Source: Acidobacteriota bacterium (GTDB taxonomy: Bacteria; Acidobacteriota; UBA6911; RPQK01; JAJDTT01). From it: 64,000 bases of DNA. Shown one piece after another: positions 12,815-30,297 of this stretch; the first letter of the stretch is position 1; every line of letters starts with the position of its first letter. Where the stretch lies: positions 1,856,001-1,920,000 of the forward strand of contig CBDCJH010000002.1 in the NCBI GenBank assembly GCA_965217775.1, read 5' to 3'. Position numbers and translations under genes: made by a program. Below the pieces are notes generated by a model. The model ran no database searches and was not told the DNA's origin. It worked only from the letters and a program-made list of their open reading frames with translations.

Positions 12815-13079
12815 AATCGAACTTACGATTAAGAAGTCGGGCGCGGATTTGCTCGAAAAGAGCTCGAAGATCGATTAGATCCTGCTCGTCGCGACGGCTG
12901 GCTAGTGCCGAGTACGTCGGGTCAAGGAGGATTTCGTTGACGGATTCAGAGGCGAGTCGCCGTCCCTCCAAGTAGAGGAACCGGGAATTCGTTGACGGAG
13001 AGCGGTTCTGACCTTCCCCGTCCGATCTCAGGGAAAGTCGTAACCTTTCGATCATTACATCAGTTTCCTTTTCCTTCAT
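12813..13079 (-). CDS. Hypothetical protein
   Basis: 88-aa ORF with a strong AGGAGGA RBS. Confidence 0.5.
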   Translation of the reverse strand: MKEKETDVMIERLRLSLRSDGEGQNRSPSTNSRFLYLEGRRLASESVNEILLDPTYSALASRRDEQDLIDLRALFEQIRARLLNRKFD

Positions 13080-13224
13080 ATGTCCTCCTGTAGCACACCA
13101 TGGTGTCTAGGTAACACCGATCGCGCGAGGCCGGCTGGATTCGGACCCGCATCCCCTGGGGCGGAACTCAGGAGTTCTGGCGTTGATTTTGCGGGCCTGT
13201 TGATTCGGTAGAGAGGGGGCAACA

Positions 13225-13971
13225 TCATTCCTCGTCGATGTTTTCTCGTTTCTCAATGAATGGCGACACAGCTGTGATCAGTTCCAGCACTTCTTTAATG
13301 GATTGCCTGGTTACCCGTTCCCGAATCCTTAATTCAAACACGACACCTCCACTGGAATCCGGTGCCAATCGCATTACCGGTTTCTCGGACGCGGCAGTAG
13401 GTATGAAGGGGCCGGCGTAAGGGAGTGTGTCCACGCCAGAGATGAGGCCCACATAGACCAGATTCTGGAGAAAAACGCTGACCAGCTTTCCCGCTCCCTT
13501 CTCGCTGTAACGAGGCTCTGCCTCGGTCGTCAGGTGGCGAAAAATTACGTTCCCGACTCTCCGAAAATCTGCTTCGGAGACGCAACGTCCCAGTCGTTTT
13601 CGATAGCGGTTCCAGATTTCCCGAAAAACGGCGGGCTTCAGCGCGGCATTTCCAGCTGCGACAATGGAGCTGTCGCTTGAGCCGTGTCGATCATACCTTA
13701 AGAATTTTGTCCCATGCATCGGCACACACCAGTAATTGCTGGTGCCAGGCATGTCGAAAGGAGAGAGTAGCCCGTAGGCATGAAGGGCTGCCACACGGCT
13801 CCGGGCACTATAGCTCGACGAGGACATCTTCCAAATGCTGTAGATTCCGTCGGCTGAGATTGGAGATGATCCGTGATTCTCGTAAAGGTCCCGGAAAGGC
13901 GTTTTCAGCGCCTCCAACGGATGCCTTGGAAACGAAGGACTGCGCATTGGGGAGTCGTGTTTCTTTTCCAC
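13225..13971 (-). CDS. Hypothetical protein (lower GC; possibly wHTH-containing)
   Basis: 248-aa ORF; segment SSSSYSARSRVAALHAYGLL followed by AALKPAVFREIW. Confidence 0.55.
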   Translation of the reverse strand: MEKKHDSPMRSPSFPRHPLEALKTPFRDLYENHGSSPISADGIYSIWKMSSSSYSARSRVAALHAYGLLSPFDMPGTSNYWCVPMHGTKFLRYDRHGSSDSSIVAAGNAALKPAVFREIWNRYRKRLGRCVSEADFRRVGNVIFRHLTTEAEPRYSEKGAGKLVSVFLQNLVYVGLISGVDTLPYAGPFIPTAASEKPVMRLAPDSSGGVVFELRIRERVTRQSIKEVLELITAVSPFIEKRENIDEE

Positions 13972-14346
13972 ACTGCGAATCTACGGCAAGCAGAGGTCGG
14001 CAGTCAAGAGGGAGAACAGAAGAACCGTAAGAAATGCCGTGACGGTTTTTACTTTGAGAGCGTCGTCTAGACAGGGTTACTGGCGTTTTTTGGAGGCAGT
14101 AGTGAGTTTACCTTGTAAAAAACGGGGTAAGGGAGAGGCAGCCGGCAGAGAATGTAACTGTCCCCCCTTCTCCCGTGCCCCATTGGAAGCATTACCACGC
14201 CGGGACCAGCCCGGCTGCAATCGCGTCAATCTCTTTCGTCTGCCTCCCCCAATTCAGGCACGCCAATAAGATCCATTTTGAGCCGAAGACCCTCGATGGA
14301 TAGGCTCGCTGCCCGTTTTCGGCAACGGAATAAAGGGAGGATCGGG

Positions 14347-14907
14347 ATGATGACATCAAGTCTGCTCGCGATTCTGGTGTTCACGACACCTGCATTGATC
14401 GCCGGAAGTCACCACCATTCGGCCCGGCCGCGAGAAGAGGAACTGGTGCAACCGCACCAACATGACGGCCACCGGAGTGGTCTCCACTGGCGATGACGAG
14501 ATATCCCTCTACGTGCTCCGCCACTACAAGTTCCCCAGCATTCACGTGGAGCGGATGGTCCTGAGGACCGACGGGTTCGTCTCCCTCAACGCCAGCTACG
14601 GCGGCGGGGAAGTCGTCACCAAGCCCCTGACCTTCGAGGGGAGCAATCTGGTGCTCAACCTCGCCACCTCCGCGGCGGGAAGCATCCACATCGAGAGCCA
14701 GGACGAGGCGGGGCGGCCGCTTCCCGGATTCGCTCTGGAGGAGTCGCCACTGGTCTGGGGGGACGAGATCGAGGACACCGTCAGGTGGAAGCGTTCCCAC
14801 TCCGGCGCCACCTCAAAGGCGCCCTTGAAGCGGATCGCGGGCAAACCGGTCCGGCTGCGTCCGGTGATGAAGGACGCCGACCTCTTTTCGCTATGATTTC
14901 GTTGATC
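14347..14907 (+). pseudogene. Internally deleted paralogue of the 4068-5579 hydrolase
   Basis: N-terminus (LLAILVFTTPALIAGSHH) joined straight to sequence matching ~5090-5579; frameshifts and a premature stop. Confidence 0.85.
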
Positions 14908-15313
14908 TGGATGCTCTTGACGTCGGCGTCAAGCCGAAGTCCTCTCCGCTCGTCCTGCGAACCGCGGAGAACGGAACTGTCCCTTTCTCTAGATTCGTAC
15001 CTCTTGCGTGGAAGTTCCGATACCAGCGGGAACGCCCGGCCTGCCGGGGGTGGCGCCGATCTCAGGTTGGAATCTCCGTTCGCCAATCAGAGGAAAGCTC
15101 CCCCACCGGCGCAGTCCGGCGGACGCGTAGGAGAAACAGGCATCGAGTTCATCCGGCCCGGCGTCCTCGACGAGACCATCTCCCCTGCCCAGCCCGCTGG
15201 GCGGAAACGACCCGCCTGTCTTCACTCTTTCCTATTTCCTCTGTTTCTTCGAAGGATCCCTCTATTACGGCCGAGCAGTTTTCCGATCTTTACAGCCCGG
15301 ACCGAGTCCATGC

Positions 15314-16678
15314 TCACCAGATACCCCATATGTGCGACGCCTGTTTGGGAAATAACGCGTTAAGCAAACCGCGCGTCTCCGGGGACCCGATATCGCAGTC
15401 GGGAAAGGCGTACTCGAGCTCATCCGCGCCACGGAACCCGAAGAGCAGTTGCAAGAAAATCAGCCCGGGGAAGAATGCGTCACACGTCCCGGAACTCAGC
15501 CAGTTACCACCCTTTCGCGGCCTGGCTAATCTCTCAACCTTTGCCACACGTCCGTTGTCGAATAAAAGGTTCACTCCGTAATCGACGAAGCCTATCGTAA
15601 GCCTGCCCCCGTAACCCGCCACCGCCGAATCTGCCACCCGCCGTTCCAAGACTGGTCTGACATGCCGCAGGAAGCCGGCAATGTCGGGCACCCGGACATA
15701 CCATCCGCGAATCCTCTTCCATCGCGGCGACCTGTCGTTCATGACCGGATACGCCGGGTGTTCCGTACCCAGTTCGAACGCCACGTTGCGAAACGAGGGT
15801 TGCATCTGTCGCGCAGCGTACGCCTCGCCCATCCTCCGGAGATGCCTCACGACGCTGGGAGTGACCTCATGCCAGGAGGCGCCGTCCTTCAGCTCGTAGA
15901 GAAGAACGCAGGGTTCACCATCCCAGAGACCCCGGACGTGCACAATGAGTCCCACCGGCTCACCAGTCGCGGCCTCCACGATGCACATCTCCAGCTCTGA
16001 ATAGGTGTTCTTGCTCCGCCCGTTCAGCTCGTACCGCCACAGCTTCCCGTCGCGGACGCAAAAGACCAGGTAGCGCCCCATTGCCTCCTCGTACAGGCGA
16101 GCTATGAATGGCAGGTCTCCGGCGGTCGCGGGTCGTACCGTGTAAGGCTCCCGGACAGCATCGTCAAGTGCGGGCCAATTGGAGACGGGGCACGAATACC
16201 CCATTCCAAACTCCAGCGCCATCTCGTAGCCGAACTGGCGATAGAACCAAGGTATGCCGCTGATGACCTGCATCTTCTCGCCGCGCCTCGCACTCATCTC
16301 GTGGACGGCGTCCATCTGAGCCCGCACCAGCCCGCGTCTTCGATAGTCGGGATGCGTGGACACAAGCTCGATACGACCTGCGCTTATTTCAATGCCGCCA
16401 TAGGACCAAGTTTGTGGGATCAGGTTCAGCATCGACACGATGGCCCCGGTACCCATGTCTTCCACCAGGGTGAAGTCACAAGGCTGGAATCTTGGGAGGG
16501 CTCCGCTCATGAGGTCCCTGGTCCAGATTCTGAATGACTCGGCAAACATGTGGGGAAGGTGGACCTTAGCCTGAAACTCCGCAGCAGCCTCAGTATCCTC
16601 CGCGGTGGCCTGTCTCAGGATCAGCCCATCGCCCAAGTCCCCCGGGAGGAACCCGGGCCCCGCGGCATCCGGAGTCAT
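15314..16678 (-). CDS. GNAT acetyltransferase, Eis-like
   Basis: VSTHPDYRRRGLVRA acetyl-CoA motif; GIPWFYRQFGYE; tandem GNAT plus SCP2-like C-terminus. Confidence 0.8.
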   Translation of the reverse strand: MTPDAAGPGFLPGDLGDGLILRQATAEDTEAAAEFQAKVHLPHMFAESFRIWTRDLMSGALPRFQPCDFTLVEDMGTGAIVSMLNLIPQTWSYGGIEISAGRIELVSTHPDYRRRGLVRAQMDAVHEMSARRGEKMQVISGIPWFYRQFGYEMALEFGMGYSCPVSNWPALDDAVREPYTVRPATAGDLPFIARLYEEAMGRYLVFCVRDGKLWRYELNGRSKNTYSELEMCIVEAATGEPVGLIVHVRGLWDGEPCVLLYELKDGASWHEVTPSVVRHLRRMGEAYAARQMQPSFRNVAFELGTEHPAYPVMNDRSPRWKRIRGWYVRVPDIAGFLRHVRPVLERRVADSAVAGYGGRLTIGFVDYGVNLLFDNGRVAKVERLARPRKGGNWLSSGTCDAFFPGLIFLQLLFGFRGADELEYAFPDCDIGSPETRGLLNALFPKQASHIWGIW

Positions 16679-16964
16679 CCCGTTGTCCCTGCGAGAACAC
16701 GTGTTGCGTACATGCCGCTCCTGACCCTCAGTACCCAGACCAAGCTGCCTTGATCCAAGCCCTGCGCTGCTCGATGTTGTTCTTGGTGAGTTCACCGTCT
16801 TTGGTGGTGTATTCGGACTTTGGTGTTGTATTCGAGGACTACGAAAACACCTTGACCACGATAGCACCTTTCATCACAAGTTTAGGACTTCCACCGGACC
16901 TACATCCGGGGCGCACCAAGCCCAAATTTGCCCCCTGAGCGTGCCTTTTTCCTCGGGATCGGGT

Positions 16965-17287
16965 GGAAGTTGACTACGTGGACTATCATTGACGGAGAAG
17001 ATCGATCATGGCCATGCACAACCCACCGCATCCGGGCGGCATCGTATAGCGGCAGTTCCTCGAACCCCTGGGTTTGACCGTGACCCGAGCCGCCGCGGGT
17101 TTGGGCGTCACTCGGCAGGCGCTTTCGGAGCTGGTGAACGGGGATCTCGGTAGAGATGGCAATACGGCTGTCGAAGGCCTTCAGCTCGACGCCCGAGACC
17201 TGGCTGGGGATGCAGATGGCCTACGATCTCTGGCAGGTGCGCGGCGGCGCCGAGGAGATCGCGGTGGAGCGCTTTGTGGCGCCGTAA
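16965..17287 (+). pseudogene. higA: higB 3' remnant + higA antitoxin pseudogene
   Basis: EVDYVDYH* then [44 protein letters not shown] / ISVEMAIRLSKAF..TPETWLGMQMAYDL; in-frame stop and frameshift. Confidence 0.85.
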
Positions 17288-18119
17288 CCGAGCCACTCGC
17301 TCTTGGGAGCATCACCGTCTCCTCAACGCTGGCGGCCATCGTGGCCGTCTCGATTCATCAGATTCTCCCTCCAAGGTCTTAATTCCCCCGCCTCCTTCGT
17401 CCGTCTCACGAACCACGAACCGAGAGAAGGTAACTGTCCCCTTCTCTTCCGGCTCCATTGGAAAGTCAACCTGTCGGCGGGTGACGGTCCCCCTGGCCGA
17501 TAAACGGTTTATGACTGGTTCAATCGTCCTGTTTTTGAGCCGATTCAGTCGAATCGACAGAGGTTCAAGAGAATCCGGACTCCGACCGCACGAAACCGCC
17601 GGTTTGGAAGCCCTTATCAACATGTCCCATGAATAATCTGGGATACAATAGGTTGGGAGTGTGAATCAGGCTCTCCGACCCCATGCCCTCTGCCATCACC
17701 CTTGTGATACCAGCCCTCAGCAGATTGAGTTGACCCCTCTCCTCCAGGCCGCATATAATTAGTTTTGTTTATCTTTAAACGTCGCCAGTCGTGAGTGCCG
17801 AGCACGTAGGGCTGGCGACCCTCAAGGTGCTACTAGCGTGCCCCAGGAAAGTGCCAAGCCGTATCCCGAAGATCCAATGCGGCCCCGGTTCAAAGACGTG
17901 GATCAGTGCTTCGGCCCTCGTGGATGCGAGGCCCCAGGTGAATTGTGGACCTGGACTTGACCGCGTTCGCTTGAGTTCCCTTCGGGGTTGAGCTCGCCAC
18001 ACGTCGTCGATTCAGTACAATCATTCGGTAAAGGGATGCTCGGGCAACCGGCGTGCCAGGGTATCCCTATGCCTACTTAAACCCTGCGGATCACCCCGTT
18101 TAGAGCTTAAGTACCCCCT

Positions 18120-18842
18120 ATGGAAGAATTCATCCTTGTAATAGCCGTAGTTTGGATTCTGATCTGGTTTTTGGGCGTCTATGGAGACAGACACCCTCTT
18201 GAACCCAAGGAAGTACATCGACTGGCAAAAGTCAGGCAGCGAAACGTTGGTCTCTCGAAATATCAATTCTCGCGACAACAGCGACGAGTCAACGCAAAGC
18301 AGAAGAAGGCGATGAGAGCCGGAGGGGAATTCGTCCAATGTGACCTGGATTACAAAACGGCGCCTGCTTGGGTCGCTGCGATGCTTAAATACAAGAAGCA
18401 TGAGTGGGTAGTGATCGGGTTCATCTGCTCCTTCCGAGTCAAGGCGCTCTGGTGGAACAAAGGCCCGAACAGAAACAAGGTTCGTCCCTTCTTGTCCGGT
18501 TATGCTTTGGATTCTGCAATCGACTCACTGAATCCGGATGCGATTGCTATTCTTCACAATCACCCGAATCCGAATCCTGGCATGTACGTGATGAATCGAC
18601 CCAGCCAACAAGACCTGCGATCGGCCGAATACTTTAAGAATCAAGTCGTGTCGAAAAATAATGTCAGTCTTCTAGAGTTCGTTTGTGAGCGTGGCGTCCC
18701 CCATCTATATTTCGCTGCGTTTCCAGACCGGGAAATTCCCATCCAACCCATCACAGAGCAGATTCAAGCCGTCAATGGCACGAGTATGCTTGCCAACAGT
18801 AGATTACGCCGGGAGCTACGCGGATCAGAAAAGTCTTTGTAG
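18120..18842 (+). CDS. Membrane-anchored JAB/MPN (RadC-like) domain protein
   Basis: N-terminal TM helix; upstream Glu (HEW) plus HNHP...PSQQD JAB metal motif; low GC. Confidence 0.65.
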   Translation: MEEFILVIAVVWILIWFLGVYGDRHPLEPKEVHRLAKVRQRNVGLSKYQFSRQQRRVNAKQKKAMRAGGEFVQCDLDYKTAPAWVAAMLKYKKHEWVVIGFICSFRVKALWWNKGPNRNKVRPFLSGYALDSAIDSLNPDAIAILHNHPNPNPGMYVMNRPSQQDLRSAEYFKNQVVSKNNVSLLEFVCERGVPHLYFAAFPDREIPIQPITEQIQAVNGTSMLANSRLRRELRGSEKSL

Positions 18843-18962
18843 ATGAGGCTTGAGGACCGCCCGCCAGCCCCAGGGTCCTGCGCCCACAAGCAATCCCCCG
18901 ATAAACGCGCATAACACGGCCCACAGTGGGCGCAGCCTGCAAAAAGGACCATAGAGCCCTAG

Positions 18963-19180
18963 CAGCCCGTGGCAAAAGTCGGGAGAAGTCACACTGCTGA
19001 CATAAAATGGTGCTCGGGTCGTATTCCAGAAAGTCTCGCACGCTCGCCGAATCCGACACCCGCCAGGCGATGGCCCGCTCCAAGTTCAGCCCCTCGAAGT
19101 ACCCCACCAGCAGCAGCCGAAAGTACCGTCCGGGCCGTAGACTCGGGCGACCCAACCGTTCGCATAAAAGCGCGCGTGAA
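18963..19180 (-). mobile_element. IS1182/IS5-like transposase remnant with intact right end
   Basis: GRPSLRPGRYFRLLLVGYFEGLNLERAIAWRVSDS (DUF772-like) fused to the terminus GACTTTTGCCACGGGCTG|CTAG, identical to the MITE end. Confidence 0.8.
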
Positions 19181-19537
19181 AAGAACGTGACTGTCCTCTT
19201 CTCGATACGCGGCATCTGAGAGAAGGTGACCGTCCCCCTTCTCATCTTTTGGGAGGCCTCTTCTCGAAAGAATCTCTGAAATCAAGTCTGTGAAGGTGTT
19301 CCGTCTTCGTGGACGGATTAGTAATACGGTTTCAACTGGTAGTTGTTGCAATACCCCTTCTATCGGTGGGGGTCAAGACTTCTATCTGTCAATGGACATC
19401 GAATATGTCACGGAAAGAACGTGGCTGCCCCCTTCTCGATACGTGTGTAATACGAGGGCCATTGTGTCTTTCCTATTTCGTGACTCCAGCGCTTTCCGAA
19501 TATGCGCTGCAAAGGTGGGGCCTCTCAACCATCAATT

Positions 19538-19828
19538 CTATACTTGCCCCGAAGACAGCAATGCGCGCTTGACGGCCTCTGGTTCCTTTGCGATCACACG
19601 TAGAAGAGTTGCAGCCGGTCCGCTGATCTGGCGCGTCCCTTGCTCCCATTTGCGGTAGCCGGAAAGACTCATGCCCATCAATGGCGCCATCTGCGCCTGT
19701 GTGAGCTTCGCCTGCTCCCGAACCTCGCGTGGAGTCACGGGAGAGTGGAGGACAGCGTAGCCATCTCCCTTTGCGTGAGCAACAGCTTCCTTGAGAGACT
19801 GGATCAGGTCGTCGCCAAATGTGCTCAT
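19538..19828 (-). CDS. HigA-type HTH (Xre) antitoxin
   Basis: FGDDLIQSLKEA...LTQAQMA..MGMSLSGYRKWEQG.RQISGPAATLL; ATGA overlap with the toxin gene. Confidence 0.9.
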   Translation of the reverse strand: MSTFGDDLIQSLKEAVAHAKGDGYAVLHSPVTPREVREQAKLTQAQMAPLMGMSLSGYRKWEQGTRQISGPAATLLRVIAKEPEAVKRALLSSGQV

Positions 19829-20163
19829 TTCATCCCCTTTCGGGCCGCCTTGAGTGCGGCTACGAGTTTTGAAACCGTGCGTCTTTCCTTCGGCGTCATG
19901 TCAGTTTTCGAGCTCTTCGCATAGGCAAGCAGTGCGTAAATCGGACTCGCTTTGTCCAAGTAGTAGTAGATCACTCGAGCCCCGCCTCGCTTGCCCCGTC
20001 CGGAGGCCGCGAAGCGCAGTTTCCGGACACCGCCGGTGCCCGGAATTTCATCCCCCGCCAGCGGATTCTCCGCGAGGAAGTTGATCAGTTCGTGTTTCTC
20101 ATCCTCACTGAACAGCTTGTCAGCCTGACGGGAGAACGTCGGAGTCTCGGCCACCGTTTGCAT
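19825..20163 (-). CDS. RelE/HigB family toxin
   Basis: ETPTF...NPLAGDEIPGTGGVRKLR..GRGKRGGARVIYY; TATAAT ~8 nt before the ATG suggests a leaderless transcript. Confidence 0.9.
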   Translation of the reverse strand: MQTVAETPTFSRQADKLFSEDEKHELINFLAENPLAGDEIPGTGGVRKLRFAASGRGKRGGARVIYYYLDKASPIYALLAYAKSSKTDMTPKERRTVSKLVAALKAARKGMK

Positions 20164-20432
20164 CGAACGACATTATATACCCCATTGGGTTAGTTTAGGC
20201 AGTCCCAATCCGTGCGATTGCGTGAGCTGGTCGAGAAGAAGGACGGTCAATTCAGACTTTGGTGAGGGAAAGGCGTCATCGCCCGTAATCGGGAGAAACC
20301 GGAAACGCGACTCGACTACAGAAACTCGACCACGCCGACCCAGAACGACCAGGGGCATGACTCGTGCGATCGGACTTGGCCCCGGACGTGACGCGGACGT
20401 GACCGAAAAAAAGTGACTGTCCCCTTCTCGAC

Positions 20433-20600
20433 GCTGAAGCGCATTGCGGGCAAACCGGTCCGGCTACGGCTGATGATGAAGGACGCCGACCTGTTTTCGC
20501 TGCGGTTTCGTTGATCTGGATGCGCTTGACATTGGCGTCAAGCTGAAGCCCTCTCCGCTCGTCTTGCGCGAACCGCGGAGAGCGGAACCGTCCCTTACTC
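20433..20600 (+). repeat. 3' end of the hydrolase gene plus downstream segment (matches ~14825-14989)
   Basis: LKRIAGKPVRLRLMMKDADLFSLRFR* followed by the same ~85-bp tail as at 14905-14989; bracketed by two junction motifs. Confidence 0.85.
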
Positions 20601-20605
20601 TTCCT

Positions 20606-21004
20606 TTACGTTCTCGCGTCCACACGGCGAAGGTTGCCGCCCCAGCTCAGGATGCGCTCATCGGCCGTGAGCAGACTGTGACCCCCCAGCGCAGTCGCGA
20701 CGATGATGCGGTCGGCTGGATCCGCGTGGAAGTCCTTCAGACTGTTGGCGCGGATGGCAATGTCGCCGTCTACCGGAATCTCGACGAGACCATCCTGGAG
20801 AAGCCGGGTTCGCCACGTTCTGACGTCCTCCAGCAGGCGGATGCGCCCCTTCTCGTGCAACAGAGCCACTTCCCAGAACGAAAACGCCGACGCCGCCAGT
20901 GTGGCTTCCCGTAGTCCCCGTTCCATCAGTCCTCTGGAAAGAGGCCCGATTTGCGGTCCGCCAAGTCTCGACCACAACAGTACGTGAGTGTCCACCAATA
21001 TCAC
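20606..21004 (-). CDS. vapC: VapC PIN-domain toxin
   Basis: VILVDTHVLLW..SAFSFWEVA..HADPADRIIVATA..LLTAD; GTGA overlap with the antitoxin stop. Confidence 0.9.
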   Translation of the reverse strand: MILVDTHVLLWSRLGGPQIGPLSRGLMERGLREATLAASAFSFWEVALLHEKGRIRLLEDVRTWRTRLLQDGLVEIPVDGDIAIRANSLKDFHADPADRIIVATALGGHSLLTADERILSWGGNLRRVDART

Positions 21005-21285
21005 GGATTGGCCACCCGGTCGGGGTTCACCTCGGCTTCCCACTCCAGGTCAATCGGGGAGATGATGTCGCCGATGATTTCGATCCTGTCTCGATCAGCT
21101 CCGAACCAATCCCCGAACCGCTTGCGGTAGGGCAGAAGGCGCGCGGTTGGGCGGCCATTTTTGGTGATCACGATCTCTTCTCCGCTTTCTGCCACTTCGT
21201 CCATCAGCCTGAGGCACGTGGCCTTGAACTCGGACGCCTTGATGGTACGTGATTCACTCGCTCCGTCTCGTTTGGGAACTACCAT
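21001..21285 (-). CDS. Phd/YefM antitoxin
   Basis: IKASEFKATCLRLMDEV..GEEIVITKNGRPTARL. Confidence 0.9.
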   Translation of the reverse strand: MVVPKRDGASESRTIKASEFKATCLRLMDEVAESGEEIVITKNGRPTARLLPYRKRFGDWFGADRDRIEIIGDIISPIDLEWEAEVNPDRVANP

Positions 21286-21329
21286 GGCGTCACACCCTTC
21301 CTCTTGCAGTATGGGATCTTACCATAGTC

Positions 21330-21343
21330 ATGACCATGGTCAT
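21330..21343. promoter_or_regulatory. Putative TA operator palindrome
   Basis: Perfect palindrome ATGACCATGGTCAT upstream of phd-vapC. Confidence 0.55.
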
Positions 21344-21397
21344 ATAATATACTGGTGTTCAGGTGACTCACAACTCTGAACACGGCGGTAGATTCGC

Positions 21398-21637
21398 ATG
21401 AACCGCACCCTACTTTCGCTCATCGAAGCCGAATACCTACGCTACAAGCTCCTCGGGGAACGTGCGAGCGAGGAGAACGGAACTTTCCCTTTTCTCTTCG
21501 TGAAGATCCTGAAGGGGTTCGTCGGAAAGGTAACCCATACACGGTACCAACTGACCCAAGAGGGAAAGCGAGGTCTCGCTGCCTACTGGAAACAGATTGA
21601 CGAGATTCGATCTCTTCCATCGCACATGACCCGATAG
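21398..21637 (+). pseudogene. Chimera: DinB/DUF1572-like N-terminus + junction motif + winged-HTH (HTH_34-like) C-terminus
   Basis: IEAEYLRYKLLGERA | motif 21473-21496 | KGFVGKVTHTRYQLTQEGKRGLAAYW. Confidence 0.6.
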
Positions 21638-21709
21638 GCAAGAAGACCCCTTGGCCTGGGATTGTCAATGGCTCCAGGAAGAAAGGACTGTCCCTTTCTG
21701 TTCCGCCCC

Positions 21710-22236
21710 TGGAGCTGACTCCGCAGGCGAAGTCCGAAGGTGTGAGCATCGTCGGCGGAAGTCGTGGAGCGGGCGTCGCCATGCTGGCCGGCATCCGCGA
21801 CGAGCGCATCGAGAACATCGTCGCCTTCTTCGGTCCCACCGACTTCTTCGACGACTGGGTGCGGCAAATCGTGCGCGAGGCGGTCCTGGGGCGTCCGCGC
21901 AAGCTCACGGGCGTGGCCCACATGGACTCCACTTTCGTTCAGCCCTACATGAGAGGCGAGATCGAACTGGCTGAGTTGCGCCTGGAGTTGGTGCGCCGCT
22001 CCTCCGTCCTGTTCGCCGAAGACCTGCCGGCCGTCCAGCTGCACCATGGCGATTCCGACGAGACCGTCGCCGTCAGCCAAGCGTACTCGATGATCCGTGC
22101 CATGGAGACCTTGGGACGCGAGCCTCCCGAGTTCGAGGTCTTCATCTATGAGGGTGGAGGACACGAGGTGTTCGGTCTAAGGGGTGCCATTCCGCGGGCG
22201 GTGAGGTTCCTGTGGCGTGCCCTGGGAAGGCAATAA
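21710..22236 (+). pseudogene. C-terminal part of an alpha/beta hydrolase (S9 peptidase-like), 5'-truncated
   Basis: GGSRG nucleophile elbow, HG..D, YEGGGH; no N-terminus; starts right after a junction motif. Confidence 0.7.
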
Positions 22237-22302
22237 AGTCGCTTATCGGGCTGACCTTTTGCCGGAGTTGGAGGAATCTTTCGGAGAGGGAGGTGACGTC
22301 AC

Positions 22303-22824
22303 GTGAAAACACGCCGCAAGTTCCCCGCCGGTACAGTCCTCGTCACGGCGATCCTGGGGGCAGTTTCTCTCAGCCCATCCGGAATGGCGCACGCGGGACC
22401 CGAGGACTACGAGCGCGTCTATTGGGACAAGGGAGACGCCAGGAAGGTCATCGCCCGCGCGACAGCAATTGACATGGGGAGCACCAGTGAGATGCTCCTT
22501 CGCATCACTGCAGTCGCATTCAATAACGAACCGAACAGAGACGAGACCACTTATGGCGTCTGGCTCACAGACGACGTCTGCTGGTCACTGGCTATTCTTG
22601 TGCAAGAGGAAGAACGACGGACCGATGAGGAGAAGGAGAAAATCTACGAGGCCTTCGTGGAAACGGGTGCATGCCGTGAAGCCCGACACCCCGCCCGAGC
22701 ACCGGGATTGGTATCCACAGGGGACAGACTCACCGACAACCGAAACGGAACAGCGGAAGAGTTCAAGATGATGGAGATGTATCCGGCTTGGAGATCTCCA
22801 CAGAAAAGCCTGCCGTCGCCCTAG
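22303..22824 (+). CDS. Hypothetical secreted protein (C-terminus possibly chimeric)
   Basis: GGAGGTGA RBS; signal peptide ending AHA. Confidence 0.5.
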   Translation: MKTRRKFPAGTVLVTAILGAVSLSPSGMAHAGPEDYERVYWDKGDARKVIARATAIDMGSTSEMLLRITAVAFNNEPNRDETTYGVWLTDDVCWSLAILVQEEERRTDEEKEKIYEAFVETGACREARHPARAPGLVSTGDRLTDNRNGTAEEFKMMEMYPAWRSPQKSLPSP

Positions 22825-23231
22825 GAGTTCCCCGTTCCCGCCCCTAGGAGCCTGCGCGGCAGAAATTGATCTACTGCGAAAGCGGTAGAATCGGTCCATA
22901 TTTCCTCGATTTCTCGGCGAATAGAACAACTATGCACCTCCAAATCGAGAAAATCTGGCCTCGATTCCCCACTTTCTCGCTACGATCATTTCTACCGCGC
23001 AGACTCCTAGCTTGGGCCAAAGACCAGGGGCCTATACCTGAATCCTCGTGTAGGGGAGATCTCTGCACTCTGGAGGACTTCCATTAACTGAAATTGTCAG
23101 ACGTAGACGGTTCGCACTTGATTCAGACTCTGCGCCGTCCGTGCGCTTTCCCGTCCGCTTCTGTCCCAATCCGATGAGCTCCCGCCGTTGGAAAAATCAC
23201 ATCTGTTTGTACCGTGTCGGACGATGAGCTC

Positions 23232-23321
23232 GGAGGAACCCTTGAAGCGGATCGCGGGCAAACCGGTTCAGCTGCGTCTGGTGATGAAAGACGCCAGTCT
23301 TTTTTCGTTGCGGTTCCGGTG
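23232..23321 (+). repeat. Further degenerate 3'-end copy of the hydrolase gene
   Basis: GAACCCTTGAAGCGGATCGCGGGCAAACCGGTTCAGCTGCGTCTGGTGATGAAAGACGCC matches ~5493-5579. Confidence 0.8.
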
Positions 23322-23602
23322 AAGTCGGTGGCGCTAACCCAATCAGCCTATTCGGTGTCATAGACGCCAGATGCGCGTTTGAATCCGAGTACTGCGATCC
23401 TGAATGGCCCACCAGTCGCAGCCACCGGAACTGCATCAAGCTTGGCGCACTAATCCGAAGTTTCAGAGATGAAGTCAAGTAACTCTCTCATTTGGAACGA
23501 CTTAGATATTTTCCTCCCATAGCCTGTCTGGCTACGCCAGGACGTCACTCCCAACTGTTGGAACGCCCGTCGCTGCAATTCGGCGGACCGGAGAGATCCG
23601 GG

Positions 23603-26600
23603 CTACGAGCCCTCCATCCCATCTTCTCCCTCCCGGATGCTCAAGTTGCCGTAGCGATGGTAATCACTACTGATGCTTTGCTCCCTGACGTACCAGAGCA
23701 ACTCCACCCGGCCCTGGATCAGTACCGGCGCCCGCGCCAAGTAAACCCCCGACGCGGCCGCCGCCCGGAACACGATCTCCGGCACCCGCTCCGGCGCCGC
23801 ATAGCGGACGCGGTCGGTCTCGGCTTCGCGGACCCGGCTCGCCAGCTCGTCGTCGCTTTCCTCGAAAAATTCGACACCCTCGTTCCACGATGCGGTCAAT
23901 TCCTGCAGCCAGTCGGTGGCCGGAGACCACCAGCCCCGGGGGAAACTTACCTTGGCCCGGCAGCCGACGGCCTTGGCCGCACAGACGCGTGCAAAGATCT
24001 CGAACAGTGAATCACGGGGATCCAGGCGGATTTGGAGCCGGCGGACGGGCAAATAGCGCCGCAGGTTGTCCTGGCCCACCAAACGGAAGTGGTCATGGGT
24101 ACGGCCGAATTCCTCTTGACTGTTGGTGCAGTAGCTCTCCAAGGCTGCCGCGACCCGAGGCAGTTCGTCCCCGTACGCGGCAACTCCGGGCGGACCCGGC
24201 TCTTGCAGGCGCCAACGGAGGTCGGCGAGATCGGGATCGGCGATTTCGAGAGCGCCGGCTCCAACTTCACCGTCCCGGAAGTCCATAAGCTGGGCCACGT
24301 AGTTGGGTCCTCCCGCCTTGATTCCGGGGCCAAAGGCGGACTTGCCCATGCCACCAAAGGGTTGGCGGAGCACGATGGCCCCGGTGGTCCCTCGGTTGAC
24401 GTAGAGGTTGCCCGCCTCGACGCGGTCGCACCAGTAAGATTGTTCGCGATCGTCCAGGCTCTCGAGGCCGGAGGTCAGGCCATACCCGGTCTGACGGATG
24501 AGGTCCAGGGCTTGGTCCAGGTTCTTCACCTCCATCACCCCCAGCACGGGGCCGAAGAGCTCGGTCAGGTGAGTGAAGCTCCCCGGCCGGACATCCCACT
24601 TGACCCCTGGGGAGTAGAGATATGGATTGCCTTGCAGCCGTCGGGGCATCACCGCCCAGGACTCGCCCGGCTCCAGTTCCTTGAGGCCGGTTTCCAGGGC
24701 ACCCGAGGGCGCGCGAATCAGGGGCCCCATCCTGGTCTGGAGGTCCCAGGCCGAGCCCACCTCCAGGCTCCGCACCGCGTCGCAGAGCGTCTCTTTGAAC
24801 CTCGGATCCCGGTAGACCTCCTCCTCGACCAGGAGCAGAGAGGTTGCCGAACACTTCTGTCCGCTGTGACTGAAGGCGGAGTGAACCACGTGGCTGACGG
24901 CCAACTCCCGGTCTCCAAGAGCGGTCAAGGTGGTAGCGTTCTTCCCCCCCGTCTCAGCCAGCAGATTCATATCCGGCGTGGCCCCCAGCATCCGCAGGGC
25001 GGTCTCGGTACCGCCGGTGAGGATGACGGCGTCCACCTCCGGGTGGGAGACCAGGCAGGATCCGGCAATCTCGTCGGAGCAGGAGACCATCTGCAGGGTC
25101 CGTGGGGAAACCCCGGCCCTCCAGAAGCAACGGCAAAGCTCGTGGGCCACCAGCACCGTGTCGGGGGCGGGCTTGAGGATGACCGTGTTCCCCGCCGCCA
25201 GGGCGGCGGCGATTCCGCCTCCCGGTATGGCGATGGGAAAGTTCCAGGGAGAAACGACGACCACGACACCCTTGGGCTTGACCTGCAGACCTGGAAGGTC
25301 GTGGAAGTAGCGGGCCGCCAAGTCGTAGAAAACGACGAAATCCACCACCTCACTGACCTCCGGGTCCGACTCGGACAGAGTCTTTCCGCCGTCCGCCAGG
25401 GCGGCGCCCATGAGGTCCCCGCGGCCCCGGCGCAATTCCCGCGCCACCGACGCCAGCACTCGGGAGCGCTCTTCGGCCGTCCTCGTGCGCCAGCCGTCGG
25501 TATCGTTTCGAGCGCAGGTCACTACCCGTTCGATGTCCTCCCGGTTGGCCAGTCGATAGCGGCCGACGACCAGGCCCGGCCGGGAGGGATCCCGGCAGTC
25601 ACGCAGCTCCCGATCCTGAAAGATCTCCTCCCCGTCCACGACCAGGGGAACTTCCACCTTGTGGTCGTGGTGGCGAGGTTTCCAGCGTTCGATGATCGCC
25701 CGGCCCCACTCGCGGTTGGCAGGCAGTGAGAAATCAGTATCCGGTTCGTTGACAAATCGTTTCCACGAGCTCGGGGGTGACGACACACGAGTCTCGGCCA
25801 GGCGATTCTGGACGCGTCGAGGCATCTCCGAAACCTCTTCGCGGTGACGAGAAGATTCGAGGAACCCCGCTTCCAGTCGTTTCCATTCCGGGCTGCCGGG
25901 GACCAGCTTGAAGGCGTACCTGAGGAAATTGTCGGGTCCCGTGTTCTCGTCCAGACGGCGAAAGAGGTATCCGACGGCGTTGACGAAGTCCTCTTTCCTG
26001 GTCGCCGGCGCATAGAGGAGGAGGTTTTGCGCCATTTCGAACAGGGCCCGGCGCTGGGCATTGGCCATCCCTTCCAGCATCTCGAACTGCACCCGGTCCA
26101 GGACGCCGGCCTCCGCAGCCAACAGCAGGGCGTACGAGACGTCGAAGAGGTTGTGTGAAGCCACCCCCAGCCGCACCGCCGCAATATTCTCCGGAGCCAG
26201 AGCTTCCTGCAGCATGCGCTTGTAGTTGGCGTCGGTCTCAAGCTTTGACTCGTACGGCGCTTGCTCCCAGCCCCGCAGGGACGCCTCCACACGTTCCATC
26301 TCCAGGTTGGCGCCCTTCACCAGCCGGATCGTTACCGGTGCTCCTCCGCTCTGCACCCGCTCCCTGGCCCAGGCGTTGATTCTCTTCTGGGCCAGGTATG
26401 AGTCGGGGAGGTAGGCTTGAAGAGCGATCCCCCCGCCGGCCTGCTGCAAGCCCTTGCGGTCGAGGGTCCGCAGAAAGACCTCTGTGGTCACCGCCAAGTC
26501 GCGATACTCCTCCATGTCGAGGTACACGAACTTGGGCACCACGCTGCCGTCTCGGCGTCGAAAGCGCCCTCTGGCCGCAGCCCGATAGAGCAGCTCCAGC

Positions 26601-27337
26601 CGGTCGCAAAGCACGGAGACGGTGTGCTCGAAGGCTAGAGTCGAGATCTGGGAGTAGATGGTGGAGACCTTGACCGAGATCACCTCGATCTCCGGGATCT
26701 GGAGCGCGCTCAGGTACAACTCCAAACGCCGCTGGGCGTCGGCTTCTCCCAGCAGGGCCTCTCCCAGGAAGTTGACGTTCATCCGTACCCCGCCGGTCCG
26801 GCGCGCCTCCAGGTGCCCGACCAGCAGGTCCTCCTCCGCGGGGAGGATGACGTTGGCGGTTTCTTCCCGCATCCTTTCCCGGACCAGCGGCGCCGCCACC
26901 TCCGGGAGGTAGCTGCCGAAGGAGTGAAACCCCTTGAGCAGAGTTCGATCCAGACCGCTGAAGAAGCGGGGGATTCCCTGGATGTCCAGGATGTGCAGGA
27001 TCTGGTCGACGGCGCGGCGCGGGTTGCTGGAGCGGAAGGCTTGGTCGGTGAGCTGGGTGAGGGTCGCTTTGTCGTGCGGACTCTGCACCATCCGCTCCAG
27101 TTCGGCCTGCTGCTTCTCTTCTTCGGGGGTTTGAAGCGTCGCCGCCTTTTCCTGAAGACACCGTGCCAGGAAGACGGCTTTCTGCGCCTGCTCCGAGTCG
27201 GGTGACCCGCGGTCCGGTCTGAACGATCCGAGAAGCTCGAGCAGTGACTTCTTCACGTGGGGATCCGTCGGAATATAAGATCTTGGACCAGGAGCCTCTT
27301 TTGGTGGCGCCCCCTCCACAGGATTAACAGCCCGCAT
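23603..27337 (-). CDS. putA: Bifunctional proline dehydrogenase / P5C dehydrogenase
   Basis: DMEEY, IRLVKGA, ASHN, RRLDEN (PRODH); SPWNFP, ETGGKN, GQKCSA, ELFGP (ALDH). Confidence 0.95.
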   Translation of the reverse strand: MRAVNPVEGAPPKEAPGPRSYIPTDPHVKKSLLELLGSFRPDRGSPDSEQAQKAVFLARCLQEKAATLQTPEEEKQQAELERMVQSPHDKATLTQLTDQAFRSSNPRRAVDQILHILDIQGIPRFFSGLDRTLLKGFHSFGSYLPEVAAPLVRERMREETANVILPAEEDLLVGHLEARRTGGVRMNVNFLGEALLGEADAQRRLELYLSALQIPEIEVISVKVSTIYSQISTLAFEHTVSVLCDRLELLYRAAARGRFRRRDGSVVPKFVYLDMEEYRDLAVTTEVFLRTLDRKGLQQAGGGIALQAYLPDSYLAQKRINAWARERVQSGGAPVTIRLVKGANLEMERVEASLRGWEQAPYESKLETDANYKRMLQEALAPENIAAVRLGVASHNLFDVSYALLLAAEAGVLDRVQFEMLEGMANAQRRALFEMAQNLLLYAPATRKEDFVNAVGYLFRRLDENTGPDNFLRYAFKLVPGSPEWKRLEAGFLESSRHREEVSEMPRRVQNRLAETRVSSPPSSWKRFVNEPDTDFSLPANREWGRAIIERWKPRHHDHKVEVPLVVDGEEIFQDRELRDCRDPSRPGLVVGRYRLANREDIERVVTCARNDTDGWRTRTAEERSRVLASVARELRRGRGDLMGAALADGGKTLSESDPEVSEVVDFVVFYDLAARYFHDLPGLQVKPKGVVVVVSPWNFPIAIPGGGIAAALAAGNTVILKPAPDTVLVAHELCRCFWRAGVSPRTLQMVSCSDEIAGSCLVSHPEVDAVILTGGTETALRMLGATPDMNLLAETGGKNATTLTALGDRELAVSHVVHSAFSHSGQKCSATSLLLVEEEVYRDPRFKETLCDAVRSLEVGSAWDLQTRMGPLIRAPSGALETGLKELEPGESWAVMPRRLQGNPYLYSPGVKWDVRPGSFTHLTELFGPVLGVMEVKNLDQALDLIRQTGYGLTSGLESLDDREQSYWCDRVEAGNLYVNRGTTGAIVLRQPFGGMGKSAFGPGIKAGGPNYVAQLMDFRDGEVGAGALEIADPDLADLRWRLQEPGPPGVAAYGDELPRVAAALESYCTNSQEEFGRTHDHFRLVGQDNLRRYLPVRRLQIRLDPRDSLFEIFARVCAAKAVGCRAKVSFPRGWWSPATDWLQELTASWNEGVEFFEESDDELASRVREAETDRVRYAAPERVPEIVFRAAAASGVYLARAPVLIQGRVELLWYVREQSISSDYHRYGNLSIREGEDGMEGS

Positions 27338-27556
27338 CGTCAGTTTCTCCCGCATTCCCTTCTCTAACAACCCGCAGCCGGTTGGCTCGAGTGCTCGAGG
27401 CGGTTCCTTCCAACCGTTTCTACCACCGGCCCGCATTTCTCACCGGGGCTTGCACTCTTGAGAAGAGTGTAGAGATGGCGCAGAGTTTTTCCCGTAAGCG
27501 CCAGTTCGCGTCCGCAAAACGGTGCACCGCACTGTCCCCTTCTCTTCATTCGCCGC

Positions 27557-29094
27557 CTGAAGCTCCCGACTCTGATCGACCCCAAGGGCTCGCGCCAGCG
27601 CAACTTGGTGCTGGCCCTGATCATTCAGCGTTTGTTGCATCCCGCCTCCAAGCTGGCCACCACCCGGCTCTGGCACACCACCACCCTGGCCTCCGAGCTC
27701 TCCCTGCAGGACGCCGACGAGGACGACCTGTACGGGGCCATGGACTGGTTGCTCCAACGTCAGAATCGGATCGAGAAGAAGCTGGCCCGGCGGCACCTGG
27801 CCGAAGGCGATCACGTGCTTTACGACCTCTCGAGCAGTTACTACGAAGGCCACACCTGTTCCTTGATGCGATTCGGCCACAGCCGAGACGGCAAACGCGG
27901 CCGGCCCATCGTCGTCTACGGGGTAATGGCCGATGCGGCGGGTTGTCCGGTGGCGATCCAAGCGTATCCCGGCAACACGGGGGATCCGGTCACGGTGCCG
28001 GATCAAGTCGAGAAGTTACGCCAGCGGTTCGGGTTGAAGCGGGTGGTGCTGGTGGGGGACCGGGGGCTGCTGACCGAGACTCAGATCAAGCATCTGAAGC
28101 GGCATCCGGGACTGGGGTGGATCTCGGCCCTGCGCCATGAGGCCATTCGCCAACTGGTGGACGCCCAAGAGGTTCAACCCTCGCTCTTTGACGAGCGTCA
28201 CTTGGCGGAGATCCGGACCGAGGCCTATCCGGGCGAACGGCTCGTCGTCTGTTACAACCCGATGCTGGGGGAGTATCGGCGGGGCAAACGCCAGGACCTG
28301 TTGGCGGAGACGGAGAAGAAGTTGGCCCGGATCGCCCGGGAGGTGGCGCGACGGACCAAGACACCCTTGCTGGCGACCGAGATCGCGGTGAAGGTGGGTC
28401 GGATCAAGAACCGGTACAAGGTGGCCAAGCACTTCGAGATGGTGATCGAAGACGGGCGCTTCGAATACGCCCGGCGCACCGAAGCCATCGCGCGGGAGGC
28501 GCAATTGGACGGGTTCTACATCCTGCGCACCAGCGAACCGGAAGAGCGGTTGGCGACGGCCGATGTGGTGCGCAGCTACAAGAACCTGACGAACGTGGAG
28601 CGGGCCTTCCGCTCACTCAAGACGGTGGACTTGCAGATCCGTCCCATCCGTCACCGGGCCGAGACGCGGGTGCGGTCGCACCTGTTCCTGTGCCTGCTGG
28701 CCTACTACGTCCAGTGGCATCTGCGGCGAGCCCTGGCTCCGTTGCAGTTCGATGACGAGGACTTGGAGGCGCACCGCGCTCGACGGGACCCGGTGCTGAA
28801 AGCCGAGCCGTCGGCCTCGGCCAAACGGAAAAAGACGAAGCGGGAAACCGAGGACGGACTGCCGCTTCACAGCTTCAAGACACTGATGGCGGAGATGGCG
28901 ACGCGTGCCCGTCACCAGTGCCGAACCGCCTCGGACCCGGACGGTCCGAGGCTGCAACGATTGACGGAACCGACGCCGCTGCAGCGACGGGCGCTGGAGT
29001 TGGTCAAGGTGTTCCCAGTGGACAACTAGTCCGCTTCGTGAGTTGTCCCTTTAGAATCAAGGAGTTATCTTGTCTCTGGGTCTGGAACTTCGGG
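27557..29094 (+). mobile_element. IS1634-family element, 5'-truncated; transposase reading frame ends at 29029
   Basis: LYDLSSSYYEG, GHSRDGK, VGDRG, VERAFRSLK, IRPIRH; right end ...GGAACTTCGGG; left end and N-terminus absent, replaced by a junction motif. Confidence 0.9.
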
Positions 29095-29347
29095 TTAACT
29101 GAAATTAACGGACCTTCTGCGAGAAAAGGGAGGATTTCGCAGTTTCCCACGGGTCCTTGAATCAGCTTCGAGCCACCCGGAAACTCGGTTGGGAAGACGA
29201 GTATAGAGAAGGGGCAGAAAACGGAACTGTTCCCTTATCTTTCCATCTGGATTCCTTGGAGCGGGGGGGCGCCATCCAGGAGACCCGGACACCGGCCAAT
29301 CACAGGTGACGTGGGTAGAACCTGAATCGCGCCCCATATTCAGAAGC

Positions 29348-29650
29348 CTACCAGCGGCCTCGACCGCTTTTCCGGTAACCGCCGCCACCGCCGCCGGACC
29401 GGTTCTCACGCGGACGTGCTTCGTTCACGGTCAGGGTCCTTCCGCCCAACTGAGTCCCGTTCAAGGCACTGATGGCCTTCTGGCCGTCCGCCTCGTCCAT
29501 CTCGACGAAACCGAAACCCCGAGACTGGCCGGTCATTCGATCCGTGATTACTCGAGCCGATTCCACAGGACCGTACTCGGAGAAGGTCTCCTCCAGCCGG
29601 TCATCCGTGATTGCGTAGGGCAGGCCCCCTACATAGATGTTCTTCTTCAT
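29348..29650 (-). CDS. RRM RNA-binding protein (Rbp family)
   Basis: RNP2 IYVGGL, RNP1 RGFGFVEM, Gly-rich tail. Confidence 0.95.
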   Translation of the reverse strand: MKKNIYVGGLPYAITDDRLEETFSEYGPVESARVITDRMTGQSRGFGFVEMDEADGQKAISALNGTQLGGRTLTVNEARPRENRSGGGGGGYRKSGRGRW

Positions 29651-30297
29651 TTTCTCCTCCTAATGTTGTAAGAAATGGAGTTATCCACCCTGAGACACCA
29701 ACTGTAAACAGAGCAGGGCCCGATCCTGTGTAGTTGTACGATCTGATCGGGGATTCCTTTGGGAGTCTTTCGCAGGGAAGAAACTAGCTTGGGCTCTCAA
29801 CACCTGTTCTTCGGTGCTACCTGTCGAACCCTCTGCTGAATAAACCGCCGCGAGCATAGCCCTTCTTTCCATCGCTGTCAAAAGAACTTTGTCGTTAGTA
29901 CGTGAAGTCTCCGGTCCATGAGGTGCGAGATTTTGAAGGTTGCCCGTTTTCGTGGACGGTTGGGTGGTGCGGTTTCAATCGGTCTTAGTTGTAGTCCCCC
30001 ATCTATCGGTCAATTGCCATCGACGATGTCAGAGTTGTGGCCACCGACAGAGCGTTCTTTTTCAGTGGGGGGACTGATGGAGGCGTCAGTAGAAGGGCTG
30101 AGGTTGTGGGAAATCTCTGGTTTTCCACAACGGGATACCGTGTTCAGACTCCACCAAGAGGGATCAGAGCACGACAGAAGCTTTTTTTGGACCCTGACCC
30201 GCGCCCCTGACCCCCAATTTCGCAGCCTTTTCCAGTGCTAGCTGGGCAACGAAGCCGGGACATTGCGGAACGTCCGGACGCTTCCAGCCCAAATCGG

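Follow-up and report, generated by a model that had tools for sequence, protein, structure and literature searches.

A clustered, co-oriented 24-bp repeat in an Acidobacteriota genome is probably the terminal repeat of a multi-copy, RAYT-like transposase unit

Analysis of a 64,000-nucleotide stretch of an Acidobacteriota genome (the window; G000:C2:1856001-1920000, from the G000 assembly of 6.43 Mb in two contigs) revealed an array of 12 copies of a site of about 24 bp, all on the plus strand, between window positions 14147 and 29239, where they lie beside toxin-antitoxin modules, gene fragments and mobile elements. These sites probably represent the short repeat that ends a TIRYT-type unit, present for the most part as solo copies; in such a unit, a gene for a RAYT-like Y1 HUH enzyme lies between inverted repeats containing GGGGACAG(T). 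The family and fold of the enzyme, the layout of the repeats around its gene, the co-occurrence of repeat and enzyme among genomes, and the clustering, co-orientation and breakpoint enrichment of the sites were all observed directly.

The consensus of the site reads AGAGAAGGTGAC-T-GTCCCCTTCTC, with a near-invariant center and right half and a variable, purine-rich left arm. It has 24 informative positions and its flanks hold none, so that no longer conserved element extends beyond it; an origin as the tip of a longer insertion sequence (IS) or miniature inverted-repeat transposable element (MITE) was ruled out on this ground. When at most two mismatches are allowed, the 14-nt core ACTGTCCCCTTCTC occurs nine times in the window, against a mean of 0.61 and a maximum of 3 in 100 dinucleotide-preserving shuffles; eight of these matches are on the plus strand, and the ninth (19220-19233) is near-palindromic and scores on the minus strand as well. 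A position weight matrix made from the genome copies of the site, and scanned over window and genome, recovered 11 full 24-mers in 14147-29239, all on the plus strand; with one further half-site, they uphold the dozen or so co-oriented sites that the initial annotation had described from the window. The rest of the window, in whose housekeeping parts that annotation had seen no sites, holds a single weak matrix match (3714, score 17.8), within a long open reading frame (ORF), and the "weak copy" that it placed at 17481 falls below both thresholds, that of the core match and that of the matrix. The inverted arms that it saw are a property of some copies: when the 11 full copies were folded as single-stranded DNA, the arms paired at z < -2 in two and at z -1.4 to -1.6 in two more, while six folded no better than shuffles. 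The hairpins are thus weak, a T-run after the site is absent, and no Rfam family was found at its gathering score in 13000-30500.

Seven of the 12 sites have a breakpoint of homology or synteny within 11 bp of an edge (at 14989/90, 19175, 20434/5, 20601, 21709, 27547 and 29246-29251), in keeping with the earlier observation that sites lie close to truncation points and junctions, and at 14989/90 and 20600/1 a block finishes on the final base of the site. The array opens with a weak copy, AGAGAATGTAACTGTCCCCCCTTC (14147..14170; matrix score 19.3). At the next, GGAGAACGGAACTGTCCCTTTCTC (14966..14989), the last base of the site is where the alignment with the closest relative, G007, and a paralog block (14826-14990) both end, and the site is followed by a 288-bp stretch unique to G000 that holds a 160-bp MITE. 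The copy AGAGAAGGTAACTGTCCCCTTCTC (17423..17446) forms the best hairpin of the window, and a 183-bp MITE begins 13 bp downstream from it. Homology to an IS fragment (19015-19175) ends 4 bp upstream from the copy at 19180..19203; the near-palindromic copy GAGAAGGTGACCGTCCCCCTTCTC (19219..19242) scores on both strands, and the one at 19414..19437 lies to the left of a relE-higA module (19538-20163, minus strand). Downstream from AAAAAAAGTGACTGTCCCCTTCTC (20406..20429), homology to G007 (98.8%) and to a paralog begins after 5 bp, and the gene truncated at this site is intact and continuous in G007. A degenerate copy (20577..20600) ends a 3' gene-fragment block (20435-20601) and adjoins vapC-phd (20606-21285, minus strand), and a second degenerate copy (21472..21495) lies inside a 292-bp stretch (21348-21639) that is absent from G007. 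Eight base pairs downstream from the copy at 21677..21700 begins a 1,045-bp duplicate (97.7%) of C2 1815763-1816807, a locus that continues leftwards without a site. The right half-site alone (ACTGTCCCCTTCTC) is present at 27521..27544, upstream from putA (23603-27436, minus strand), and an IS copy (27547-29098) begins 2-3 bp downstream; the array closes with the copy at 29216..29239, where synteny with G002, G003, G006 and G007 begins 6-11 bp downstream.

The genome as a whole carries about 250-270 copies: the core occurs 59 times exactly, 140 times with at most one mismatch and 267 times with at most two, against 39 matches for the reversed control pattern. By our own crude gene calls, under which 86% of the genome is coding, 181 of the 267 sites are intergenic, as opposed to 3 of the 39 control matches. 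The clustering and strand polarity anticipated from the window hold genome-wide: neighboring sites are spaced at a median of 2.4 kb, against about 32 kb if they were uniform, and form 26 arrays with at least three sites, each of which tends toward its own left-arm variant, and neighbors 0.1-10 kb apart point in the same direction in 71 of 79 pairs (71 versus 8), compared with 19 versus 27 beyond 10 kb. No link was found between site orientation and the strand of the flanking genes (63 same/same, 53 anti/anti, 33 and 32 mixed). Replication-strand bias was ruled out as a source of the polarity, since runs of sites number 9 plus and 9 minus on one replichore and 20 and 15 on the other. Some 230 copies of the repeat stand alone in the intergenic DNA of variable regions. 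Beyond the chromosome, contig C1 of G000 (144 kb, possibly a plasmid) carries two site arrays (66086-68347 and 122730-128584), one of which resembles the chromosomal array C2 5225271-5227569. In a species-level genome collection, a 20-mer of the site was found only in records titled as Acidobacteriota metagenome-assembled genomes, and no viral contigs with GTGACTGTCCCCTTCTC were found.

The site is tied to a particular enzyme. When ORFs in and around the arrays were clustered and representatives scanned against Pfam, one recurrent family matched Y1_Tnp. Its reference member, P0001 (313 aa), has 10 intact paralogs and one broken copy in G000, at 80-99% identity, the intact ones outside the window and the nearest 61 kb away from the window array, so that the enzyme is indeed encoded elsewhere, as had been proposed; a gene for the 313-aa protein lies at G000:C2:1808106-1809047. 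An inverted site (GGGGACAGT) lies 160-270 bp upstream from the gene in all ten intact copies and a direct site 160-250 bp downstream in eight of them (two copies also have an inverted one downstream), and homology among the ten loci fades beyond these flanking repeats. Within 600 bp of an enzyme gene lie 22 of 251 sites, and 5 of the 26 arrays have such a gene within 3 kb. By the refuting condition set in the initial annotation, the motif is indeed the end of a known kind of transposase unit; however, 229 of the 251 copies are solo. At six loci from six genomes of the genus, the upstream cores are on the minus strand in 15 of 15 cases and the downstream cores on the plus strand in 12 of 12. 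The same inverted-upstream, direct-downstream layout recurs in G023, which belongs to another family, and in a sister genus, with a variant repeat, AAACAGTCTGTCCC, around homologs that are 53-55% identical; in G011, the upstream repeat has GGGGACAG at 840-847. Among 41 related genomes, ten contain more than one exact copy of the 15-mer GACTGTCCCCTTCTC, namely, nine of the genus and G023, and exactly those ten have a match to P0001 of at least 73% identity; the unpublished genome G016 enters such tallies only as one row of counts. The G023 enzyme is 80% identical to P0001 across a family boundary, which suggests acquisition by horizontal transfer. G023 also has dense site arrays (G023:C1:1455000-1464000 and 1484000-1493000), with 13-20 copies per 1.5-2.2 kb, which resemble tandem repeats of an irregular kind, built from units some 130-200 bp long and rich in half-site copies.

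Sequence and structure place P0001 among Y1 HUH enzymes. The family scores 27-28 bits against Pfam Y1_Tnp (cut-off, 23), which was the only Pfam model to match P0001 at an E value up to 10, with no helix-turn-helix (HTH) model on the tail of about 130 aa. The sole NCBIfam match is REP_Tyr_transpos (NF047646), over model positions 3-145 of 146; NCBIfam transpos_IS200 gave no match. H65, H67, Y164 and N168 are invariant in an alignment of 23 sequences (P0001, 20 homologs from databases and two short RAYT-like proteins of the same genome), and the spacing from H67 to Y164 is 97 residues, with an insertion after the HUH strand. The AlphaFold model (predicted local distance difference test [pLDDT], 81.8; predicted template modeling score [pTM], 0.85) has as its top Foldseek match 4ER8, the Escherichia coli REP-associated transposase with a bound REP hairpin (E, 1e-6; TM score, 0.68 on the target), followed by the IS200, IS608 and ISDra2 transposases; in the model, the tail (about residues 185-300) forms short helices with a pLDDT of 55-87. 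Some JGI records label homologs of P0001 "REP element-mobilizing transposase RayT." The genome has two other Y1_Tnp genes, single-copy and RAYT-like (233 and 223 aa; L052 245-946 and L053 198-869), which score 70-78 bits against REP_Tyr_transpos; neither is flanked by the site, and none lies within 10 kb of either.

Breakpoints are concentrated at the 3' edge of the sites, and the enrichment proposed for the window extends to the whole genome. When 251 site-centered queries of 1.2 kb were compared with G000 itself by BLAST, alignments started at 4.2 per position from +2 to +21 past the site, against 0.7 from -30 to the site end, and ended at 5.6 per position over the last bases of the site, against 0.5 beyond it. 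Comparison with relatives gave mixed evidence on whether cassettes move. G007, which is 94-99% identical in aligned stretches, has many insertions and deletions relative to G000, and its syntenic stretch holds three sites plus one half-site copy, as against the 12 in G000. A 3.3-kb stretch found only in G000 (17131-20433) ends with a site plus 4 bp, and its left end is not at a site. In four other genomes of the genus, the phd-vapC block has a site at the same end, directly at it or no more than 23 bp off, and in a fifth genome the distance is 187 bp; this shared placement makes the site look inherited rather than newly inserted. Homologs of relE-higA in G006, G002 and G008 have no site within 1.5 kb. 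In the array at C2 2108000-2126000, blocks that G000 has in common with G006, G007 and G003 begin 5-6 bp past a site and stop at the following one or slightly short of it, and the order of blocks varies between genomes; one block common with G006 (q2370-3722) runs from 6 bp past one site to 2 bp before the next, and another (q7810-8609) runs from 5 bp past a site to 2 bp beyond the end of the next. A partial Phage_integrase match in this region (L080 7580-7774, G000:C2:2115579-2115773; model positions 102-166) stops just short of a site, by a few bases, and so adds one more gene fragment that abuts a site, and an ORF family with a reverse transcriptase (RVT_1) domain lies near four arrays (e.g., L045, G000:C2:5166230-5167789).

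Metagenome contigs from four runs in three studies were compared with 13500-30500. In all four runs, 14989, where a site has its last base, is joined to 15275 through 32 other letters that start with a copy of the right half, and positions 20568 and 21707/8 are points at which several contigs break off or diverge. These joints are a weak hint only, because their sides are shorter than 30 letters and paralogs exist.

Several repeat and gene families share the locus with the sites. The window holds a 183-bp repeat (17460-17642; 14 near-full copies in the genome) and a 160-bp repeat (15089-15248; 6 near-full copies), whose window copies lie just 3' of a site and whose other copies do not, as well as a MITE-like repeat of 168 bp (22844-23011) with 54 near-full copies of 94-100% identity and very high depth in the four metagenome runs. 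Targeting of the site by MITEs or IS copies is not supported, as near-full copies of the families concerned lie beside sites in 1 of 14, 0 of 6, 0 of 54 and 1 of 2 cases. An ORF family of about 145 aa (14462-14896, within 14416-14914) matches nothing in Pfam and is represented in the genome by some 20 paralogs, 66-92% identical in DNA; the window also contains three of its 3' fragments (14826-14990, 20435-20601 and 23230-23323). The PutA-like gene (proline dehydrogenase plus aldehyde dehydrogenase) stands between the mosaic region and the IS copy and has a partial paralog at C2 5041377-5044089 (83-86% identity).

The sites themselves carry a trace of how they may be cut. A second copy of the right half is present within 80 nt downstream from 40 of 251 sites, and 19 of these 40 begin exactly at the G of GTCCCC, right after ACT (ACT^GTCCCC); for 13 of the 19, the end of the repeated unit falls 0-11 nt beyond the site. 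The periods are 13-22 nt, at times with three or four units. Duplications of the left half upstream number 21, a few of which end at GAC. A fixed central start, together with ends where the breakpoints pile up, fits two HUH cutting positions and suggests that these duplications reflect cuts made by the enzyme. Because the hairpins are weak and the arms in G023 are not complementary, recognition is more likely to depend on the conserved right half; a stable hairpin as the recognized form was set aside, few window copies pairing their arms. We propose that the enzyme would recognize chiefly the conserved half, GACTGTCCCCTTCTC, and would cut a single strand at the center (ACT^GTCC), shortly 3' of the site or at both places; rounds of cleavage and rejoining could spread sites locally and leave duplications, deletions and new junctions alongside, and such events beside the sites might be why gene fragments and modules abut them.

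Other explanations start from the same observations. The sites might be the right-end terminus and the preferred target of one-ended or circle-based mobilization by an HUH enzyme, with cargo plus site placed shortly 3' of a site already present; cassettes would then stack up into co-oriented arrays, much as those of an integron do. Blocks do tend to finish with a site, new homology begins 2-11 bp past it, the G006 blocks of C2 2108000-2126000 span from site to site in an order that varies between genomes, the 3.3-kb stretch found only in G000 ends with a site plus 4 bp (though not its left end), and neighbors are locally co-oriented. Recombination or deletion between similar sites, or breakage alongside them, would however yield the same block pattern, and the direction of change, gain or loss, cannot be set without an outgroup; the site in the 292-bp stretch lies in its middle, the relE-higA homologs of three relatives lack a nearby site, genes face both ways, and neither a circle nor an identical block at two different sites was seen. 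We consider stacking of this kind quite unlikely. The broader proposal, that the site is terminus and target of a Y1 HUH enzyme joining arbitrary DNA one-endedly, with head-to-tail arrays as the HUH counterpart of integron cassettes, also strikes us as unlikely; if it were true, toxin-antitoxin pairs, gene fragments and enzymes would be assembled into islands by this route. The integron-like capture envisaged in the initial annotation is thus a minority hypothesis here: no tyrosine recombinase accompanies the arrays, and the two-way genes, the site-free relE-higA homologs and the mid-indel site count against it too.

It is also conceivable that the transposase spreads the sites and other processes make the junctions, the sites merely surviving in dispensable intergenic DNA of variable islands. 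The setting of the window array, amid gene fragments, toxin-antitoxin pairs, IS copies and MITEs of families with 14 and 54 near-full copies, would suit such passive hot spots, as would the many G007 indels here that are not all at sites. Yet the enrichment is sharp, confined to the few bases around the 3' edge of the site and not extending across the intergenic region, those MITE and IS families that adjoin sites in the window are not found beside sites elsewhere (the 1/14, 0/6, 0/54 and 1/2 given above), and the half-site duplications have a fixed start; we hold this explanation to be highly improbable. Least probable of all, and barely credible to us, is a regulator binding site, transcription terminator or RNA motif unrelated to transposition. 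Short, intergenic and partly palindromic sites would fit that description, but they show no link to flanking-gene strand, no Rfam family lies in the region, the hairpins are weak with no T-run after them, and the site brackets one transposase gene in each of its copies.

The assignment to a TIRYT-type unit has to be set against several results that weigh on the other side. P0001 scores 50.2 bits against REP_Tyr_transpos, below the curated cut-off of 80, a PDB sequence search with it gave no match at an E value up to 1, and its tyrosine motif, Y-x-E-L-N-A, is not the Y---NP given for class 2 in the accessible text of PMC6006769. The hairpins are weak and the GTAG tag is absent, unlike in classic REPs; arm covariation exceeds shuffles at three positions only and could reflect relatedness of subfamilies, and in G023 the two arms do not complement each other, the left one reading AAATGAT. 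The breakpoint counts are BLAST ends in one genome, approximate and from nonindependent events; the 292-bp indel relative to G007 has its site in the middle and not at its ends; and the search for "filled versus empty" site pairs in G000 gave three candidates among 251 queries, none of them convincing.

With about 10 enzyme genes and about 250 sites per genome, in genomes that are 94-99% identical where aligned, the genus offers an unusually rich natural record, which includes half-site duplications that hint at the positions of DNA cleavage. If the enzyme makes the junctions, short HUH sites would drive island mosaicism in Acidobacteriota; if it does not, the sites provide a clear, bounded case for annotating such repeats as what they are and not as regulatory motifs. 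In the searchable literature, TIRYT-type Y1 enzymes were found in two works only, PMC3733652 and PMC6006769, neither of which gives biochemistry on them.

Among known systems, integrons share with these arrays co-oriented, recombination-site-like repeats that part gene-sized modules, several of them toxin-antitoxin pairs. The sites described here, however, are 24 bp long without attC-like arms, the genes face both ways, and the enzyme is an HUH nuclease; no IntI-type recombinase was found at the arrays, the 24 Phage_integrase matches in the genome including none in the window and two partial ones near arrays. IS200/IS605 elements (IS608 and ISDra2) share the Y1 HUH fold, and the multi-copy state of the enzyme is that of an IS. 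IS608 cuts at fixed short distances from a recognized DNA element and inserts 3' of a short target. The end repeats here are inverted, whereas that family has same-strand subterminal hairpins, and P0001 has Y164-x3-N168 in 313 aa, compared with Y...Q and a TnpA of about 150 aa; no tnpB was noticed beside the enzyme copies, though no search was aimed at it.

The REP/RAYT systems (REPtrons and REPINs; E. coli TnpA-REP, 4ER8) provide the best fold match, with the HUH motif and the catalytic tyrosine present in P0001, and here too a short repeat, dispersed in intergenic DNA, flanks the gene in inverted copies. The differences are in the repeat, which has no GTAG or GT[AG]G tag in its 24 informative positions, lacks the stable palindrome of 20-40 bp and occurs as co-oriented copies and not as inverted pairs (REPINs), and in the enzyme, which is not single-copy and, with an 80% identical one in the other family (G023), appears to depart from vertical inheritance. 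Typical RAYT groups have 1.3-1.8 copies per replicon, according to the accessible text of PMC5581495. Within the TnpAY1 classification, the accessible part of PMC6006769 describes subclass 2.3 as long multi-copy proteins (median, 325 aa) that have a conserved insertion separating beta3 from alphaC, HUH and Y motifs set far apart and an extended C-terminal tail, rooted within subclass 2.1, described mainly in Chromatiales and Alteromonadales and without REP-like sequences alongside. P0001 resembles this subclass, by description only, in length, insertion, HUH-Y spacing and tail, and differs in that a flanking repeat is clear here.

The closest counterpart is the TIRYT, defined as a RAYT-like gene flanked by inverted repeats, the unit being called a TIRtron (Di Nocera et al. 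2013, PMC3733652), and equated with TnpAY1 subclass 2.1 by Quentin et al. (2018, PMC6006769); this and what follows is limited to the accessible text of the two papers. Many TIRYT repeats share GGGGWSAS, some form families in dimers or clusters, and the TIRYTs of Acidobacteria are the most sharply defined group (PMC3733652). In the genome studied here, a RAYT-like Y1 HUH gene likewise lies between inverted repeats holding GGGGWSAS, the reverse strand of the core being GGGGACAG, and the repeats are likewise a dispersed family, often clustered. The fit of GGGGACAG to the published motif (PMC3733652, PMC6006769) bears out the statement in the initial annotation that this strand resembles repeats beside Y1 nucleases, and the exact repeat may already be listed in the figures or supplements of either paper. 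The C-terminal HTH of subclass 2.1 TIRYTs (Bac_DnaA_C, HTH_23 or HTH_28) is not seen in P0001, and the enzyme differs further in its 10 intact genes at 80-99% identity and in its 313 aa, with an insertion after the HUH strand and a tail of about 130 aa; the repeat differs in its roughly 250 mostly solo copies in co-oriented, kilobase-spaced arrays. In descriptive terms, this is a known kind of element, unusually busy here, to which the genome studied adds a multi-copy enzyme, co-oriented arrays with kilobase spacing, a sharp breakpoint peak at the 3' edge of the sites and half-site duplications.

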